NCBI GenBank assembly: GCA_044867525.1
Contig: JBIOVB010000118.1
Location: 22,266-86,265, forward strand
Length of the DNA: 64,000 nucleotides
Direction of reading: 5' to 3'
Origin: Acidimicrobiia bacterium
GTDB lineage: Bacteria > Actinomycetota > Acidimicrobiia > Spongiisociales > ZC4RG35
The stretch's first letter is position 1; the number at the start of each line of letters is the position of its first letter. This document shows positions 31,343-38,329 of the stretch, in pieces. Position numbers and translations under genes: made by a program. The notes under the pieces were generated by a model. It did not search any database and was not told the DNA's origin. It saw only the letters and a list, made by a program, of their open reading frames with translations.

Positions 31343-32593
31343 TCAGCGGCGATCGCGGTGCTGGGCGGCCCGGGCGTGTGCCTCCAGGCCCTCGAGCCGG
31401 GCGAGGAGGACGGTGTCGTCGACCAACAGAGTCGGGTCGTCGAGGCGGGACCAGGTCGGGGATCGGAGGAACGTGAGCACGGAGAGCCCGGATTGGTACC
31501 GGGCCCCACCACCTGTCGGCAGGACATGATTGGGGCCGACCCCATAGTCGGCGAAAGCCTCGGCACTGTCTCCGCCGAGGAACAGCGACCCGTACGAGCC
31601 CAGCTCCCGTGCCAATCCCTCCGGGTCCTCCACGTGGAGGGCCAGGTGCTCGGGGGCGAGACGGTCAGAGGCAGCCCTCGCCTCGTCCAGGGTCCCCACC
31701 ACCAGGTAGTGGCCATTTCCCAGCGCCTCCCCGGCGATCTCTGACGTCGGCAGGTCGGTGAGCTGAGCGGTGAGCGCCCGGTCCACCTCGTCGACCATGC
31801 GCGGCGAGGTGGTGATCAGCAGGGGCAGCGCATCGACGTCGTGCTCGGCCTGGGCGAGCAGATCGGCGGCAACCCGGTGCGGGTCGGCCGTTTCGTCGGC
31901 GATTACCAGGATCTCGCTTGGACCGGCCAGGCCATCGATTCCGATCTCACCGTACAGGTGCTTCTTGGCCGCGGTCACCCAGCGGTTGCCAGGGCCGACG
32001 ATGAGATCACACTCGGGAGACACCGTGCCGAAGGCCAAGGCGGCAACTGCCTGGGCTCCGCCGACCGCGAGCAACCCGTCTGCTCCGGCCAGCGCCGCGG
32101 CCGCCTGCATCACCCGACCCGGCCTGGGAGATGCGACCCAGACCTGGCTCACACCGGCGATCCGGGCCGGGACCACCGTCATGAGCACCGTTGAGGGGAG
32201 CGGATAGCGCCCGCCGGGGGCGTAGGCACCGGCGGAGCCCACCGGGACCCAGCGATGACCCGCTCGGCCCCCGACTACCTCGAGATCGAGGTCGCGGAGC
32301 CCTTCCCGCTGGGCCTCTGCGAAGCGGGAAATGCGGTCCCTGACCCGGATGAGCGTCTCCTGCTCGGCGGTCGGAAGCCCTTCCAGAGCGCCTTCCAGCT
32401 CGGCGCGCGGGATGACGATTGGCCCTCCTGGGTCGAGGTCATCGAGGCGTGCCCCATGCTCGCGAAGCGCCGCCTCACCACGAGAGCGCACGTCTTCGAC
32501 GATCGCCGCCGCCTCGGCCAGTGTCTTCGGGTCAACCGGGCGTCGCTCATCCCGGCGTCCGGAGAAGGCCGCGGGCTGGAGCCACCGGGTCAT
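31343..32593 (-). CDS. hisD: histidinol dehydrogenase
   Basis: 416 aa. Full-length HisD-like sequence. Last gene of the his operon, 4-nt overlap upstream. Confidence 0.93.
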   Translation of the reverse strand: MTRWLQPAAFSGRRDERRPVDPKTLAEAAAIVEDVRSRGEAALREHGARLDDLDPGGPIVIPRAELEGALEGLPTAEQETLIRVRDRISRFAEAQREGLRDLDLEVVGGRAGHRWVPVGSAGAYAPGGRYPLPSTVLMTVVPARIAGVSQVWVASPRPGRVMQAAAALAGADGLLAVGGAQAVAALAFGTVSPECDLIVGPGNRWVTAAKKHLYGEIGIDGLAGPSEILVIADETADPHRVAADLLAQAEHDVDALPLLITTSPRMVDEVDRALTAQLTDLPTSEIAGEALGNGHYLVVGTLDEARAASDRLAPEHLALHVEDPEGLARELGSYGSLFLGGDSAEAFADYGVGPNHVLPTGGGARYQSGLSVLTFLRSPTWSRLDDPTLLVDDTVLLARLEGLEAHARAAQHRDRR

Positions 32594-33852
32594 CTCTGCT
32601 CCTTGGCGACCATGGGCCGCCGGGTCACCCTGAGCGCCCTGCGGTCCAGTTCCGATTCCACATCGAAAACGGATATCCCGGCAGACGCTGCCTTTACCAG
32701 CAGGAAATAGAGGAGGTCGGCGGTCTCCGCGATCACCGACTCGTGGTCGTCCGCCGACGCCAGCTCTCCGGCCTCCTCTATCAGCTTGGCCGCCAGCAGC
32801 GCCGGGTCCTGGAGGAGCCGGGACGTGTTGGAGCCGGGGTCAGGGCGGTCGGAGATCATGCGGATCCGGCGTTCGAGACGGGCCAGGCCCCCATCATCGC
32901 CCCAACAGCTGTGATTGCCGACGTGACAGAAGCCGGGCCCATGCTGGCGCACTCTGAAGAGGAGCGTGTCCCGATCACAGTCGACCTCGACCGTGAGCAG
33001 CTCCTGGGTCGCCCCCGAAGTCTCCCCCTTGACCCATGTGCCCCGGGACCGGCTCTGATAGATGCCACGTCGCTCGTCGAGGGCCCGGGCCAGGCTCTCG
33101 GCACTGGACCAGACCAAGCCGAGGGCACGACCCGCCTCGTCGACGACCACGGTCGGCCACAGGCCGTCTGCCCGATCGGATCGGAGGACCGCGGACACTG
33201 CATCCCCCAGTGTCAGGTCGCCCGTGTAGAGAGCCATCCCGACCTGGGAGTCGGCTCCAATTGTGTCGAGGGCAGCGATCTCGGCTGCGGACGTGATGCC
33301 TCCGGCGATGGTTACCCGGGCTGGGCCGGCGGCAGCGATCACCTGCCGGGCACGATCGAGGTCGGTCCCCTGAAGACGGCCCTCCCGCTCCACGAAGGTC
33401 ACCAGAAAGCCTCCGCAGAGGTCTTTCAACTCGCCTATCCCATCGAGCAGGGCCCGGCCCGTCGCGTGCCGCCATCCGTGGCTGAGGACGATCCCGTCCC
33501 TGGAATCGAGCGCGACAATGACTCGGTCGGAGGGCAGGGCGGCCAGGAGATCCGGGCTGGCGGCTGTCCCGATGATGATTCGCTCCGCGCCGTCGTCGAG
33601 CCAGCGGATCGCGGTCTCCAGATCCCGGATCCCGCCGCCCACTCGGACTCTCCCCCGGCGGCACAGCTCCCGGACGACGTCGCGGTTCTCACCCTCGCCC
33701 CTGGCGGAATCGATGTCGACCACGGCCACTTCGCCCGTTACAGAGAACCTCTCGAACAGGGGGAAGGGATCTCCGGCTTCGATGGCAAGCGTTTCGCCTC
33801 CGATCAGTTGCACCGCCTGACCCCGTGATATGTCGATCGAGGGGATGATCAC
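32590..33852 (-). CDS. hisA-hisIE: tri-domain fusion: HisA-type ProFAR isomerase + HisI (PR-AMP cyclohydrolase) + HisE (PR-ATP pyrophosphatase)
   Basis: GTG 33852 overlaps the hisF stop. VIIPSIDISRGQAVQL.../GGGIRD (HisA). SRSRGTWVKGETSG...DCDRDTLLFRV..CH (HisI). EEAGEL..ETADLLYFLLV (HisE). Confidence 0.85.
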   Translation of the reverse strand: MIIPSIDISRGQAVQLIGGETLAIEAGDPFPLFERFSVTGEVAVVDIDSARGEGENRDVVRELCRRGRVRVGGGIRDLETAIRWLDDGAERIIIGTAASPDLLAALPSDRVIVALDSRDGIVLSHGWRHATGRALLDGIGELKDLCGGFLVTFVEREGRLQGTDLDRARQVIAAAGPARVTIAGGITSAAEIAALDTIGADSQVGMALYTGDLTLGDAVSAVLRSDRADGLWPTVVVDEAGRALGLVWSSAESLARALDERRGIYQSRSRGTWVKGETSGATQELLTVEVDCDRDTLLFRVRQHGPGFCHVGNHSCWGDDGGLARLERRIRMISDRPDPGSNTSRLLQDPALLAAKLIEEAGELASADDHESVIAETADLLYFLLVKAASAGISVFDVESELDRRALRVTRRPMVAKEQR

Positions 33853-34604
33853 GGGCGCACCAGCACATCCGCATCGGCCAGGGAGCGCTTGAGATCGGCG
33901 ACCGTGGTGTCGCCATCGTGGAGGATGGAGGCGATGAGCGCCGCCGATGCTCCGGCCTCGAGGGCTTCGACCAGATGCCGTGCGACGTTGGCGCCTCCGG
34001 ATGCGATGACCGGGACCGGAATGGACCCAGCGACCGCTCTGATCAGATCGAGGTCGTAGCCGTCCCTGGTCCCGTCCCGATCCCAACTGGTGAGCAGGAT
34101 CTCGCCGGCGCCCTCGCCGACGGCAGACGCGCACCAATCGTTGACGTCGATGCCGGTTCGGTTTCGCCCACTTTCCACCACGACCTCCCATCCCGCCCCG
34201 GTGCTAGCGGCGTCGACCGCGACCACCGTGCATTGCGAGCCGAATCGGCCGGCAATCTCGTTGATCAGCACCGGGTGCGCCACCGCCGCGGTGTTGATCC
34301 CGACCTTGTCCGCTCCAGCCTCGAGGAGGCGGCCGGCATCATCCGCCTCACGCACTCCACCTCCGACCGTGAGCGGTATCGAAAGGGCGGACCGCACCCG
34401 TCGCACCGTCTCCAAGCCGTGGCCCCGACCCTCGGGGGTCGCCGAGACGTCGAGGAGGACGATCTCATCCGCGCCCTGCTCCTCGTACAGGGCCGCGCTA
34501 TCCGTTGGGTCACCCGCATCGCGCAGGCTCTGGAACCGGACACCCTTGACCACCCGTCCGTCCTTGATGTCGAGGCACGGAATGACTCGGGCCGCGAGGC
34601 TCAC
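33849..34604 (-). CDS. hisF: imidazole glycerol phosphate synthase, cyclase subunit
   Basis: GTG 34604 overlaps the hisH stop. RVIPCLDIKDGRVVKG... canonical HisF. The upstream part of the 505-aa ORF is spurious. Confidence 0.93.
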   Translation of the reverse strand: MSLAARVIPCLDIKDGRVVKGVRFQSLRDAGDPTDSAALYEEQGADEIVLLDVSATPEGRGHGLETVRRVRSALSIPLTVGGGVREADDAGRLLEAGADKVGINTAAVAHPVLINEIAGRFGSQCTVVAVDAASTGAGWEVVVESGRNRTGIDVNDWCASAVGEGAGEILLTSWDRDGTRDGYDLDLIRAVAGSIPVPVIASGGANVARHLVEALEAGASAALIASILHDGDTTVADLKRSLADADVLVRP

Positions 34605-35209
34605 CCCGCCTCCCCGGTGGTTTCCAGCCAGCGCTCCAGGAGCCGGCTGCCCCAGGCGCCGGATAGCTCGGGATGGAACTGGCAGGCGAGAACGGCACCA
34701 CGATGCATCGCCGAGACGAATCCGCCCCCGTAGTCGGTGACCGCGGTGTCCCAGCCTGCTGGTGGGTGCGCCAGTCGATACGAGTTGGCGAAATAGGCCC
34801 ATCCCGGCTCGATCAGCGACGAATCGGGCTCCGGTGCCACCAGGTTCCATCCCAGTTGGGGGACCTTCACCGACCCGGGAAATCGGCCAACCTTCTCCGG
34901 AACAAGGTCGAGCCCGATTGCACCAGGGCTCTCCTCGCTCTCGGCGCACAGAATTTGCATCCCGACGCAGACCGCCAGGGTGGGCCTGCCGGCCGTCAGG
35001 CGCTCCCGCAGTGCCTCGCGGATGCCGAGCCGGTCGATGGCGCTCACCGCGGCCCCGAACGCGCCGACACCGGGGACCACCACCCAGCGCGAGCGATCGA
35101 CGACGTTGCGATCCGCCGCTTCGACCGGGACCCGGCCGAGACGGCCGAACGCGGCGGCCACCGATGCCAGGTTTGCGGTGCCGGTGGGGACGATCGCCAC
35201 CTCGGTCAT
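34601..35209 (-). CDS. hisH: imidazole glycerol phosphate synthase, glutamine amidotransferase subunit
   Basis: 202 aa. Class I GATase (GVCVGMQ-type nucleophile elbow, FHPE). Confidence 0.92.
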   Translation of the reverse strand: MTEVAIVPTGTANLASVAAAFGRLGRVPVEAADRNVVDRSRWVVVPGVGAFGAAVSAIDRLGIREALRERLTAGRPTLAVCVGMQILCAESEESPGAIGLDLVPEKVGRFPGSVKVPQLGWNLVAPEPDSSLIEPGWAYFANSYRLAHPPAGWDTAVTDYGGGFVSAMHRGAVLACQFHPELSGAWGSRLLERWLETTGEAG

Positions 35210-35790
35210 CCCAGAGACCCCTTGGTGCTGGGCACATCGGTTCCCGAGATCGCGACCGCCGACCGGAGAGACATGGCCACAGCCTTGAACGCCGCCTCAG
35301 CCTTGTGGTGGTCGTTGTCCCCGCGCAGCAGGTCGACATGGAGCGCCATCCGGGACTCCAGGGCAAAGGAGCGCAAGAAATGGATCAGGTTTTCGGTTGC
35401 CACGTCACCGACCTTCTCCCGTGTGAACGCGATGGAGATCTCCGGCCAGGGCCTCCCGGACAGATCGACGACCGCCCGGCACAGCGACTCGTCGAGTGGT
35501 GCATAGGCGTGGCCGAATCGTCTGATCCCGGCGCGGTCACCGAGGGCGTCGTCCAGCGTCCGGCCCAGGGAGAGGGCGCAGTCCTCGACAGTGTGGTGAT
35601 CGTCGATGTGGGTGTCCCCGTCCGCCACCATCTCCAGGTCGAAGCCGCTGTGCTTGGCGAGGGCACCGAGCATGTGATCGAGGAAGCCCAGGCCGGTCTT
35701 GATGTCGGCCCGCCCCGTACCTTCGAGCTCGAGCCGGCACTTGATGCTGGTCTCGGAGGTCTCCCGAGTCGTCTCTGCGCTTCGAGTCAT
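35206..35790 (-). CDS. hisB: imidazoleglycerol-phosphate dehydratase (monofunctional, no phosphatase domain)
   Basis: 194 aa. IGPD motifs DTHIDDHHTVED and the second His cluster. Confidence 0.93.
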   Translation of the reverse strand: MTRSAETTRETSETSIKCRLELEGTGRADIKTGLGFLDHMLGALAKHSGFDLEMVADGDTHIDDHHTVEDCALSLGRTLDDALGDRAGIRRFGHAYAPLDESLCRAVVDLSGRPWPEISIAFTREKVGDVATENLIHFLRSFALESRMALHVDLLRGDNDHHKAEAAFKAVAMSLRSAVAISGTDVPSTKGSLG

Positions 35791-37460
35791 GGCAACAGTC
35801 CTTCCAGATCGATGGGTTTGTCGAGGATTCGAGCCGCTTTGCGCAGGCTGTCCCGGGCTCGTCGTGGGTCGTCGCCGGGGGCGATCACACCGATCGGGAT
35901 CACCCCAGCGGATCGAGCGGCAGTGATGTCGTCGGGGGTGTCCCCCAACATCCAGGCTGCACTCACGTCGAGCAGCCTGAGCGCGAGCTCGACCGGTGCC
36001 GGGTCCGGCTTGAGCGGAGCGTCGTCCCTGGTGACGAGCACGGTGAACAGGTCGGCGACATCGAACCGGTCGAGGAACTCCTCGGCATCGGCCCGGGGCC
36101 GCCCGGTGACGACCGCAAGTGGGCGAGCGTCCGCCCAGCGGGAAAGTGTCGACCGATCCACCATGAGTGATTCGAGAGCCTTGAGCCCGGGGCGGTCGCC
36201 GCGGCCCTGATAGATGGCTTCGAAGCGCTCCATGACTTCCTGCAACGGGATGTCGGTTCCCCGCCCCGACAGCAAGGACCGGGCCAATTCCCAGTCGTCA
36301 TTGGCATTGCCCTCCGACTTCATATCCTGGATGTCGTCGGGCCCGACATCGACACCGAAGCTGCGCACGGTCTCGAGGATCGCGACCGACTGCGATTGGC
36401 TCACATCGGCAAGCACCCCATCCATGTCGAGGATCAGAGCCTGGGGAGCCAGTGCGGCGCGCAAGGCGGAGATCAGTCTCTCGAACTCGGGCCGGCGCCC
36501 GGGCAGAGTGATCCGGACCGTCCCCTCGAGGTCGCTGCGGCCCGGAAACCATCGCAAGGCAATGCCGAGAGACGCCACCGCGGAGATCAGCAGACCCGCA
36601 TCGCGGCATCGAGCGAGGACGAAGTTCGCCTCAGACGGCAGCGGGCTCGCTCCGAGCTCGCGGAGCAGGTCGGTCAACTCCGACCGCTCGCGCTTCACCT
36701 CCTCGACGAAGGCGGTGAGCTCGGATGTGGGCCATTGCAGCCGCTCCAAGGCGAGTTGGGCCGAGAGAGCGGCAACCGGATAGGGGTTGCCATGCAGCGA
36801 GATGTCGCCGACCAGGTCCGGAGGCCCGAGCAGATACCCGACCCGGAGCCCGGCCAGCCCGTACGCCTTCGACATGGTCCTGACCACCACCACGTTCTCC
36901 AACTCCAGGGCCGCCGGGGTCAGGTCGTTCCCCGCAAACTCGGTATAGGCAGCGTCGAGGACCAGGAGGCGGGCGTCGGCCGCCACTTTTCGCAGGTCGG
37001 ACTCGGTCATCGCGGCCCCGGTCGGGTTGTTGGGCGACACCAGGAACACTGCGTCGGTGCCTTCGGTGATCGAGGCCGTGATCTCCTCCGTTGGCAGATC
37101 ACCCTGCCACCAGGGGATTTCCACCAATTCGGCACCTTGCTGCCCGGCGTAGCGGGCGATCATCTCGAAGGTCGGGGTGGTGGTCACCACCCGCCTTCCC
37201 CGGCCGACCCTCGCCAGGAAACACCGGAACAGTGCGTCGTCCCCGCCGGCGGTGACGAGCACCGAGCCCGGGGGGAGGCCATGGAGGTCGGCCAGTGCTT
37301 GACGGAGAGCACCGATCTCCGGATAGCGGCTGATCGCCGACCCTGGGTCGGCTATTCCCGCAAGGAGATCTCTGGCCCGGGTCATTCCCTCGTTCTTGGA
37401 CAGGTCGAGGTCGATGGGAACGTCGAATCCGGGGGGCAGGTAAGGCGTAGGCCCGCTCAT
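35787..37460 (-). CDS. hisC: histidinol-phosphate aminotransferase fused to a C-terminal HAD-superfamily phosphatase domain
   Basis: 557 aa. PLP-Lys motif TMSKAYGLAGLRVGY (residues about 1-340). HAD motifs LILDMDGVL, VVTGRP, LKPDP, GDTPDD (residues about 341-557). Confidence 0.88.
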   Translation of the reverse strand: MSGPTPYLPPGFDVPIDLDLSKNEGMTRARDLLAGIADPGSAISRYPEIGALRQALADLHGLPPGSVLVTAGGDDALFRCFLARVGRGRRVVTTTPTFEMIARYAGQQGAELVEIPWWQGDLPTEEITASITEGTDAVFLVSPNNPTGAAMTESDLRKVAADARLLVLDAAYTEFAGNDLTPAALELENVVVVRTMSKAYGLAGLRVGYLLGPPDLVGDISLHGNPYPVAALSAQLALERLQWPTSELTAFVEEVKRERSELTDLLRELGASPLPSEANFVLARCRDAGLLISAVASLGIALRWFPGRSDLEGTVRITLPGRRPEFERLISALRAALAPQALILDMDGVLADVSQSQSVAILETVRSFGVDVGPDDIQDMKSEGNANDDWELARSLLSGRGTDIPLQEVMERFEAIYQGRGDRPGLKALESLMVDRSTLSRWADARPLAVVTGRPRADAEEFLDRFDVADLFTVLVTRDDAPLKPDPAPVELALRLLDVSAAWMLGDTPDDITAARSAGVIPIGVIAPGDDPRRARDSLRKAARILDKPIDLEGLLP

Positions 37461-38329
37461 GGCACGATTTGCTCGAGACGGGAGACGACGATGTCCGTGG
37501 CCCCCTGCTCCTTGAGCAAGGGGATCAGGGTCGGCAACTCGGAGCGAGGGACCGCGGCCTTGACCGCGAGGCCTTCTCCGTGATGAAGTGTTGCGATCGT
37601 CGGTTCCCGCATCGCGGGAAGGATCGACACCACCGAATCGAGATCGCCCCGGGCGACGTTGAGCTCGACCATGACCCTGCCCCGTGCCTGCAACACCGAG
37701 CTCAGGCTGAGGACCAGGGCGTCGATGGCGGTCTTCTTGACCGGGTTGTCCAGGGCGTTGGGATTGGCATAGAGGCGGGTCGATGAACGGAGCAACTCAT
37801 CGACGACGACCAGGCCATTTGCGGCCAGGGTCTCACCCGTTGCAGAAATGTCCACGATCACATCGGCATCCTCAGGTGGGAACACCTCCGTCGCGCCGTA
37901 GGAGTGGACGAATCCGGCATCAAGACCCTTGGATGAGATCCAGTCCCTGGTCAAACGCTCGTATTCACCGGCGACGACCAGTGGTTTGTCGGGCAGGGCG
38001 CCGTCGACCAGCAGGGACTCGGGCGCCGCGGCGACCATGCGCACCGGGTCGAGGCCGGTGTCGAGCAGTTCCACGAGGTCCGCGGACTTCTCTGCAACCC
38101 AGTCGGCGCCCGCAAACCCGATGTCCCGGGTTCCTGCGGCCAGCATCTCGACGATGTTCTGTGGTTTGAGGAGCTTCACCTCGAATCCGGGCACCGACAT
38201 CACGGGGCGATAGCCCCGTGGCCCGGCGCGTAACTCCATGCCGGCGGCAGCGAGCAATGCAGTCACAGCCGGCTCGATCCGCCCCTTGGGGACCGCGAGA
38301 TGGGTGATGGTTCCGTTTTTCGATGTCAT
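37457..38329 (-). CDS. hisG: ATP phosphoribosyltransferase, long form
   Basis: 290 aa including the C-terminal regulatory domain. First gene of the operon. Confidence 0.92.
   Translation of the reverse strand: MTSKNGTITHLAVPKGRIEPAVTALLAAAGMELRAGPRGYRPVMSVPGFEVKLLKPQNIVEMLAAGTRDIGFAGADWVAEKSADLVELLDTGLDPVRMVAAAPESLLVDGALPDKPLVVAGEYERLTRDWISSKGLDAGFVHSYGATEVFPPEDADVIVDISATGETLAANGLVVVDELLRSSTRLYANPNALDNPVKKTAIDALVLSLSSVLQARGRVMVELNVARGDLDSVVSILPAMREPTIATLHHGEGLAVKAAVPRSELPTLIPLLKEQGATDIVVSRLEQIVP

Follow-up and report, generated by a model that had tools for sequence, protein, structure and literature searches.

A HisC-HAD fusion predicted to catalyze two consecutive steps of bacterial histidine biosynthesis

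We found that a 64,000-nucleotide stretch of the genome of an Acidimicrobiia bacterium (GCA_044867525.1, contig JBIOVB010000118.1, positions 22,266-86,265 of the forward strand; hereafter the window) contains a histidine operon in which the aminotransferase HisC is fused in frame to a phosphatase domain of the HAD superfamily. Seven his genes with translational overlaps make up the operon, in the order hisG, hisC·HAD, hisB, hisH, hisF, hisA·hisI·hisE and hisD, and the fused gene comes second (Table 1). We predict that the fusion is very probably a bifunctional enzyme that catalyzes steps 7 and 8 of the pathway, its HAD module serving as the histidinol-phosphate phosphatase (HolPase). The first-pass annotation of the window, made from the DNA letters, had put forward the attached HAD domain as a candidate for a missing phosphatase; this proposal is now supported by the family to which the domain belongs, its homology to the protein of PDB entry 6IAH, its fusions to other His enzymes, its operon context and its phyletic pattern.

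Pfam recognizes Aminotran_1_2 (PF00155) at residues 40-322 of the fusion protein (E 1e-38) and HAD_2/Hydrolase at residues 340-524. This bears out the earlier description of a 557-aa protein with a complete aminotransferase module and a pyridoxal phosphate (PLP) lysine, which is Lys198 in the motif TMSKAYG. The four HAD motifs that had been read from the sequence are also all present, namely LILDMDGVL (motif I, D345-x-D347), VVTGRP (II), LKPDP (III) and GDTPDD (IV). The interval originally assigned to the HAD domain, nt 35790-36440, corresponds to residues 341-557, and we reset the start of the module to residue 338 (nt 36449). Asp345, Asp347, Thr452, Lys484, Asp507 and Asp511 are invariant across 32 aligned HAD domains (alignment A1) and 40 full-length fusions (alignment A2). 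The AlphaFold model of the isolated domain (predicted local distance difference test, pLDDT, 95.3) displays a Rossmann-like core and a single all-helical C1 cap, which comprises six helices between the strands 341-345 and 448-451, with no C2 cap. Searches of the PDB with this model (Foldseek and VIA-align) recovered only generic C1-capped HAD-IA enzymes at Z 22-24, such as phosphoglycolate phosphatase-like proteins, beta-phosphoglucomutase and the MtlD phosphatase, with 6IAH outside the top 50. The structure search thus failed to discriminate function, and the sequence profiles are more telling.

Profile searches, which the first-pass annotation had suggested as a check on the domain, returned TIGR01548 as the top NCBIfam model (E 4e-37, with the runner-up family at 48 bits) and established homology to 6IAH. 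TIGR01548 is held in NCBIfam as a "hypothetical equivalog" HAD-IA family whose function is unnamed. When the profile of alignment A1 was run against the PDB with hmmsearch, 6IAH was the best match (E 9.6e-19), and a profile-profile comparison of the two with hhalign gave a probability of 99.15 (E 3.7e-19) over 166 columns that include the cap. The protein of 6IAH, P0386, comes from Thermococcus thioreducens, is 241 aa long and is recorded as a "HAD family hydrolase"; TIGR01548 is its sole NCBIfam match. Its gene stands last in the T. thioreducens his operon and shares an overlap with the 3' end of hisC. By these profile relationships the HAD module is a member of the archaeal-type HAD histidinol-phosphatase lineage (toHisN/nmHisN, TIGR01548-like). 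The lineage includes toHisN of Thermococcus onnurineus and nmHisN of Nitrosopumilus maritimus (Nmar_1556), which are specific HolPases, mutually homologous, with caps unrelated to those of E. coli HisB-N and Pseudomonas paHisN (Kinateder et al. 2024, PMC10804674).

A four-residue cap fingerprint has been described for this lineage: nmHisN has Y24, D25, K56 and E64, and toHisN has Y-D-R-D. Homologues with Y-R-K-D, from Euryarchaeota and delta-proteobacteria, were predicted to be "likely HolPases" (PMC10804674). In our alignment, Gln357, Ser358, Ile361, Ile377, Lys381 and Asp389 of the window protein fall in the columns of nmHisN Tyr24, Asp25, Ile28, Ile52, Lys56 and Glu64, and the Y-D-R-D of 6IAH falls in the same columns as the Y-R-K-D of most bacterial members. 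The basic and acidic positions of the fingerprint are kept, with Lys381 and Asp389 aligning with the Arg and Asp of 6IAH. Lys381 is conserved in at least 90% of sequences, Asp389 is invariant, and the accessory Ile361 and Ile377 are retained.

The fusion recurs widely. A word-indexed search with residues 330-557 matched 2037 proteins, and nearly all of the best 120 are 544-557 aa long, contain both domains and are 58-99% identical to the query, mostly from Acidimicrobiia metagenome-assembled genomes (MAGs), on contigs as long as 3 Mb. Two-domain proteins of 544-557 aa form more than 100 clusters at 90% identity from independent assemblies (hundreds of assemblies overall), and a copy 84% identical to that of the window is carried by a congener assembled in three contigs (G175). 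When 1.84 billion cluster representatives were searched exhaustively with a profile, 498 matched at E <= 1e-30; among the best 150 of these (50%-identity representatives), 108 are 500-660 aa long and have the HAD domain matched at their C-terminus. In GTDB, sampled at one genome per species, at least 315 loci were found. According to tblastn with the window proteins, 78 of the best 80 such loci keep the order hisG-hisC·HAD-hisB-hisH-hisF-hisA·IE-hisD, and these span at least six phyla (Actinomycetota, Gemmatimonadota, Planctomycetota, Myxococcota, Acidobacteriota, Bdellovibrionota and others). Within the window's own family, the fusion is present in 7 of 41 genomes when the unpublished G173 is counted and in 6 of 40 without it.

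These data also bear on the concern, raised at the outset, that the fusion might be an artefact of assembly or gene calling hiding a stop or frameshift near nt 36440. The window genome (2.68 Mb) is indeed a draft of 132 contigs, and nothing else in favor of an artefact was found. Against it stand the uninterrupted frame, the recurrence of the 544-557-aa architecture across hundreds of independently made assemblies, in some of them on contigs of 0.5-3 Mb, and the conservation of the junction. In the model of the full-length protein (mean pLDDT 94.1, predicted template modeling score, pTM, 0.90), the last HisC helix (323-337) leads into the first HAD strand (341-345) through about three residues at pLDDT >=95, and Pro339 at the junction is invariant in full-length fusions. 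The junction is genuine, and we regard the chance of an artefact as negligible.

The same HAD family is tied to other his genes as well. In operons without hisC that are the same in all other respects, a stand-alone homologue (50-53% identical) occupies the place between hisG and hisB. The eukaryotic versions (multi-fusion records P0327, P0367, P0373/P0384 and P0374) comprise a 464-aa fusion to imidazoleglycerol-phosphate dehydratase (HAD-IGPD) in the oomycete Lagenidium, whose HAD half scores 192 bits on TIGR01548, a HisD-HAD-IGPD protein of 802-908 aa from a marine eukaryote transcriptome, a 1401-aa HisD-HisC-HAD-IGPD fusion and a 1501-aa HisA-HisIE-HisD-HisC-HAD fusion in the amoebozoan Protostelium. 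In unrelated lineages, then, one HAD subfamily has become fused to four different His enzymes, a pattern difficult to account for if it did not carry out the remaining step of the pathway. The eukaryotic fused HADs would be the HolPases of lineages that have neither the yeast PHP type nor the plant IMPase type.

The phosphatase gap noted by the first-pass annotation was then traced through the whole genome, and it holds in one respect: none of the HisN, HisK or HisB-N types is encoded. It is qualified in another, as a SuhB-like IMPase and a HAD-IB hydrolase are present as alternatives. The single IMPase-family gene (contig C37) scores 146 bits on the HisN model TIGR02067 (cut-off 275) and 203 on a SuhB-type model. 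By published criteria, HisN proteins contain motif 5, and a Gly at motif-6 position 219 is found in no HisN (PMC5516325). HolPase motif 5 (G-D-[CF]-Y-x-Y) was not found in the C37 protein, which reads MGAAALDMAWVA there, and its motif 6, WDAAAG, has the SuhB-type Gly at position 219. No PHP-type HisJ/HisK was found in the genome with TIGR01856 (cut-off 90.2), the best score being the 32.3 bits of a 580-aa PolX-like ORF; the other PHP-domain matches are two DnaE-type polymerases and a 282-aa protein (contig C47). The latter was considered as a HisK and rejected, its best models being 3',5'-nucleoside bisphosphate phosphatase and RNase RNM. The E. coli HisB-N type (TIGR01656, cut-off 84.15) was likewise not found, with 43.9 bits for the HAD domain itself and 40.8 genome-wide. 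The three-contig congener G175 has a single IMPase, also without the HisN motifs, no HisB-N-type enzyme and no HisJ-family match above the cut-off (34 bits); since it shows the same picture, the absence of HisN and HisK from the window genome is not an assembly gap.

The wider phyletic pattern, another check that had been suggested, points the same way. Among 151 sampled Acidimicrobiia genomes, 106 encode a HisN-like IMPase of at least 212 bits, and none was found in the six with a full-length match to this HAD or in a seventh whose match is cut by a contig end. A relative of the window genome (G001) has an unfused HisC, 49% identical, and a 296-bit HisN instead. In five fusion-bearing genomes of other phyla, neither HisN nor HisJ was found above the cut-off.

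Several observations weigh against a HolPase function of the module. The members of the lineage that have been assayed are archaeal, and the bacterial homologues are HolPases by prediction (PMC10804674). Our link to nmHisN and toHisN runs through 6IAH and the published description of these enzymes, not through their own sequences. With 127.5 bits, the window domain does not reach the curated TIGR01548 cut-off of 140.2 bits, which is passed by none of the 151 Acidimicrobiia genomes; it is passed by the stand-alone operon members (141.5 bits) and by the oomycete HAD-IGPD fusion (192.3 bits). Two of the four fingerprint positions are changed, Tyr24 to Gln357 and Asp25 (Arg in most bacterial members) to Ser358. 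The window genome is 95.9% complete. One of the five fusion-bearing genomes of other phyla, the myxobacterial-type G184, has a borderline HisN-like IMPase of 232 bits, and a member of the window's own family (G156) combines the fusion with a HisJ-family PHP match of 101 bits, above the cut-off. The complementarity of the fusion and other HolPase types is thus not strict, and the fusion can coexist with the HisJ type. Finally, the window genome encodes the HAD-IB hydrolase mentioned above (contig C89, 37859-38458; L096:1267-2079, minus strand). It reaches 168.9 bits with TIGR01490 and, against a cut-off of 280, 108.6 bits with the Pseudomonas HolPase model NF052360.

The last of these points underlies an alternative in which the fused HAD acts on another substrate, in housekeeping or proofreading, and histidinol phosphate is hydrolyzed by the C89 HAD-IB or the C37 SuhB-like IMPase. 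Two actinobacterial relatives of the former hydrolyze histidinol phosphate weakly (KM 18 uM, kcat 0.04-0.09 s-1), an activity judged probably promiscuous (PMC10804674). Some other HolPase must exist in Acidimicrobiia, because a HisN-like IMPase and a TIGR01548-type HAD are both missing from about 40 of the sampled genomes (e.g., families f4 and f19); nearly all of them have HAD-IB, the obvious HolPase candidate for that set. The loss of the fingerprint Tyr from the window's HAD would also suit this alternative. However, HAD-IB occurs in 121 of the 151 genomes whatever their HisN status and so does not track the gap, and the C89 protein stays far under the HolPase model cut-off. The C37 IMPase lacks motif 5 and has the non-HisN glycine, and neither gene is linked to his genes, whereas the ties of the fused HAD family to them comprise four kinds of fusion and a place in the operon across at least six phyla. 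We give this alternative a low probability and consider the C89 protein to be at most a background activity in the window genome.

A second alternative accepts the ancestry of the module and questions its present state: in the clade with Gln357/Ser358, specificity might have shifted or broadened, or HolPase activity might have weakened and been tolerated through local substrate delivery by the fusion, so that the domain would not be functionally equivalent to the Tyr-Arg forms. The Tyr replaced by Gln is kept in 133 of 145 representative domains, and it is present in 98% of nmHisN cluster I; in nmHisN, the Y24A mutant loses about 300-fold in kcat/KM (PMC10804674). The neighboring Arg, with Tyr-Arg in 47 of 66 related loci, was lost concurrently. 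The change from Tyr to Gln with the adjacent Arg to Ser, Thr, Ile or Val is restricted to one cluster of 23 Actinomycetota lineages, and a quick IQ-TREE run, with many weakly supported forks and used only to place Gln in one cluster within Actinomycetota, explains it by a single change on one branch inside Acidimicrobiia. Yet Gln is retained in all 23 species-level lineages, on terminal branches of up to 0.7 substitutions per site, with the operon unchanged and no HisN regained, a pattern that fits maintained function, and Lys381, Asp389, Ile361 and Ile377 are retained. This retention argues for a working, probably re-tuned pocket and against decay, and we deem functional drift of the clade improbable, less likely still than the use of another phosphatase.

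Two further observations concern the same alignment and tree. Members from Gemmatimonadota/Longimicrobiales (L013, L055, L084 and L085), stand-alone forms included, have Val at the position of the fingerprint lysine (...AVLAGDANDDW), which gave the most damaging alanine mutant in nmHisN (PMC10804674); judged from the alignment, these members are a second case in which nature deviates from the published fingerprint. Several MFD-series MAGs titled "uncultured Acidobacteriota bacterium" (L016, L021, L030, L034 and L040) have operons 63-81% identical to that of the window, and on the tree their sequences nest among those of Actinomycetota; they may carry wrong record titles.

Returning to the bifunctional enzyme, we posit the following course of reaction. 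The HisC module, with PLP on Lys198, would convert imidazole-acetol phosphate to L-histidinol phosphate, from which the HAD module would then strip the phosphate. Asp345 would attack the phosphate to form an aspartyl-phosphate, with Asp347 as the predicted acid/base. Phosphate binding would fall to Thr452 and Lys484, and Mg2+ binding to Asp507 and Asp511. The site would be covered by the closing C1 cap (about residues 352-445), which would read the histidinol moiety via Lys381, Asp389, Ile361 and Ile377, and here Gln357/Ser358. In the window genome, the module would replace the IMPase-type HisN of most other Acidimicrobiia. Any benefit of the fusion is more conjectural: a rigid two-site HisC·HAD might hand histidinol phosphate straight from the PLP site to the phosphatase site, a local delivery that might have allowed the Acidimicrobiia clade to remodel its imidazole-binding pocket (Tyr/Arg to Gln357/Ser358), and the seven-gene cassette with both of its fusions might have moved as a unit among at least six phyla, displacing native his genes and HisN. 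We hold this extended scenario to be unlikely, although less so than either of the alternatives above.

The closest characterized counterparts are archaeal. T. onnurineus toHisN was assayed by Lee 2008 as cited in PMC10804674, and the Thermococcales type, represented by 6IAH, shares with the window module the HAD-IA core, one large helical C1 cap, a gene position directly after hisC, TIGR01548 as the best or only NCBIfam model and the aligned motifs S-x-[YQ], basic residue-x7-Asp, PGL...E, VTGR, LKPDP and GDT. It differs in being a separate protein with a longer cap insertion, in having Y-D-R-D where the window protein has Q-S-K-D, and in overall sequence (about 34% identity over aligned columns). 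The assayed, specific and Mg2+-dependent nmHisN is encoded between hisB and hisC (PMC10804674), and its spacing Y-[DR]-x2-I ... I-x3-K-x7-[DE] recurs here as Y/Q-R/S-x2-I ... I-x3-K-x7-D; the delta-proteobacterial clusters of that study have Y-R-K-D, as do most bacterial members of this family. Compared via its published description, nmHisN is monofunctional, has a nine-helix cap and fingerprint blocks eight residues further apart, and its Tyr24 and Asp25 are not kept in the window's clade. The HisB (HisNB) of E. coli and Salmonella likewise joins a step-8 HAD phosphatase to another His enzyme in a compact operon. However, its HisB-N is a capless, zinc-binding DDDD/HAD-IIIA domain related to GmhB, unlike the large-capped domain of the window, and its partner is HisB (step 6) in the other domain order, so that consecutive steps are joined only in HisC-HAD. 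The first-pass reading of a HAD on HisC rather than on HisB is therefore right as to the fusion; rather than an E. coli-type HisB-N relocated to HisC, the domain is a member of the separate archaeal-type lineage. The IMPase-type HisN (C. glutamicum Cg0910; TIGR02067) performs the same step and is usual in the class; its fold is unrelated, and it is absent here by score and motif.

As for the HisC half, its top NCBIfam model is TIGR01141 (hisC), with 207.7 bits under a cut-off of 276.55. The PLP lysine stands in the S-K-x(3)-L-A-G-L-R-x-G-Y context, the fold is class II and the gene lies in a his operon, all as expected of HisC; Lys198, Arg206 and Asn145 are invariant among the 40 fusions. A second HisC-like aminotransferase of 391 aa is encoded on contig C12 (6042-7217; L102:1543-2718), not linked to the operon, and exceeds the TIGR01141 cut-off (288.3 vs 276.55 bits), which the fused HisC of the operon fails to reach. 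The C12 gene could be an ancestral actinobacterial HisC or Pat retained after arrival of the cassette, and the aminotransferase step may be redundant in the window genome.

The enzyme family as such is already known, having been assayed in archaea, with its bacterial homologues predicted to be HolPases in 2024. We found no description of the HisC-HAD fusion in the literature searched, which is not proof of its being unpublished; nor were the near-invariant seven-gene cassette and the eukaryotic multi-fusions described in those papers. Fani et al. 2007 listed his fusions for 8 of 10 genes, hisC not among them, and the present fusion adds hisC to the his genes known in fusions. In GapMind, histidinol-phosphate phosphatase was of low confidence in 42 of 148 prototrophic microbes (PMC7311316), and HolPase is the step most often left unassigned in reconstructions of amino-acid biosynthesis. 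The public records name the fusion "aminotransferase class I/II-fold PLP-dependent enzyme", "histidinol-phosphate aminotransferase" or "TIGR01548 family HAD-type hydrolase"; with such generic names, carriers in Acidimicrobiia, Gemmatimonadota, Planctomycetota, Myxococcota, Acidobacteriota and other groups would look histidine-auxotrophic. Recognition of the C-terminal half as a probable archaeal-type HolPase would close this gap for at least 315 GTDB species. The fusions also lend independent support to the 2024 prediction that bacterial nmHisN homologues are HolPases, and the Gln357/Ser358 clade offers a natural experiment on which cap residues are needed.

Table 1. The histidine operon of the window and the residues of the fusion protein discussed here (window coordinates).
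Feature	Position (nt)	Strand	Remarks
HisC-HAD fusion gene	35787-37460	minus	open across 557 codons, 557 aa
HisC module, residues 1-337	36450-37460	minus	class-II PLP aminotransferase; PLP Lys198 at nt 36867-36869
HAD-IA phosphatase module, residues 338-557 (220 aa)	35790-36449	minus	proposed histidinol-phosphate phosphatase
HAD motif I, Asp345 and Asp347	36420-36428	minus	invariant in alignments A1 and A2
HAD motifs II-IV, Thr452, Lys484, Asp507 and Asp511	35928-36107	minus	invariant in alignments A1 and A2
Cap specificity positions Gln357, Ser358, Ile361, Ile377, Lys381 and Asp389	36294-36392	minus	alignment to 6IAH; fingerprint of PMC10804674
hisG, long form with HisG_C domain	37457-38329	minus	Pfam
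hisB, imidazoleglycerol-phosphate dehydratase only, 194 aa	35206-35790	minus	PF00475 is the sole Pfam domain
hisH, hisF, hisA-hisI-hisE fusion, hisD	31343-35209	minus	Pfam
HisA-HisI-HisE tri-domain fusion	32590-33852	minus	Pfam

The remaining features of the operon are in keeping with its compact layout. HisB is short and monofunctional, as the initial reading had it, with the dehydratase domain alone. The stop of hisG overlaps the start of hisC, and the stop of hisC-HAD overlaps the start of hisB, in ATGA sequences. The octamer TGCCATGA is common to both ends of the fused gene (37457-37464 and 35787-35794), where the upstream stop overlaps the downstream ATG, and this repeat would fit translational coupling along the operon. 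Matches to hisA and hisIE are contiguous and in the same frame order in nearly all of the 78 order-conserving operons, across at least six phyla, so that the HisA-HisI-HisE fusion belongs to the cassette as such and is not peculiar to the window genome.

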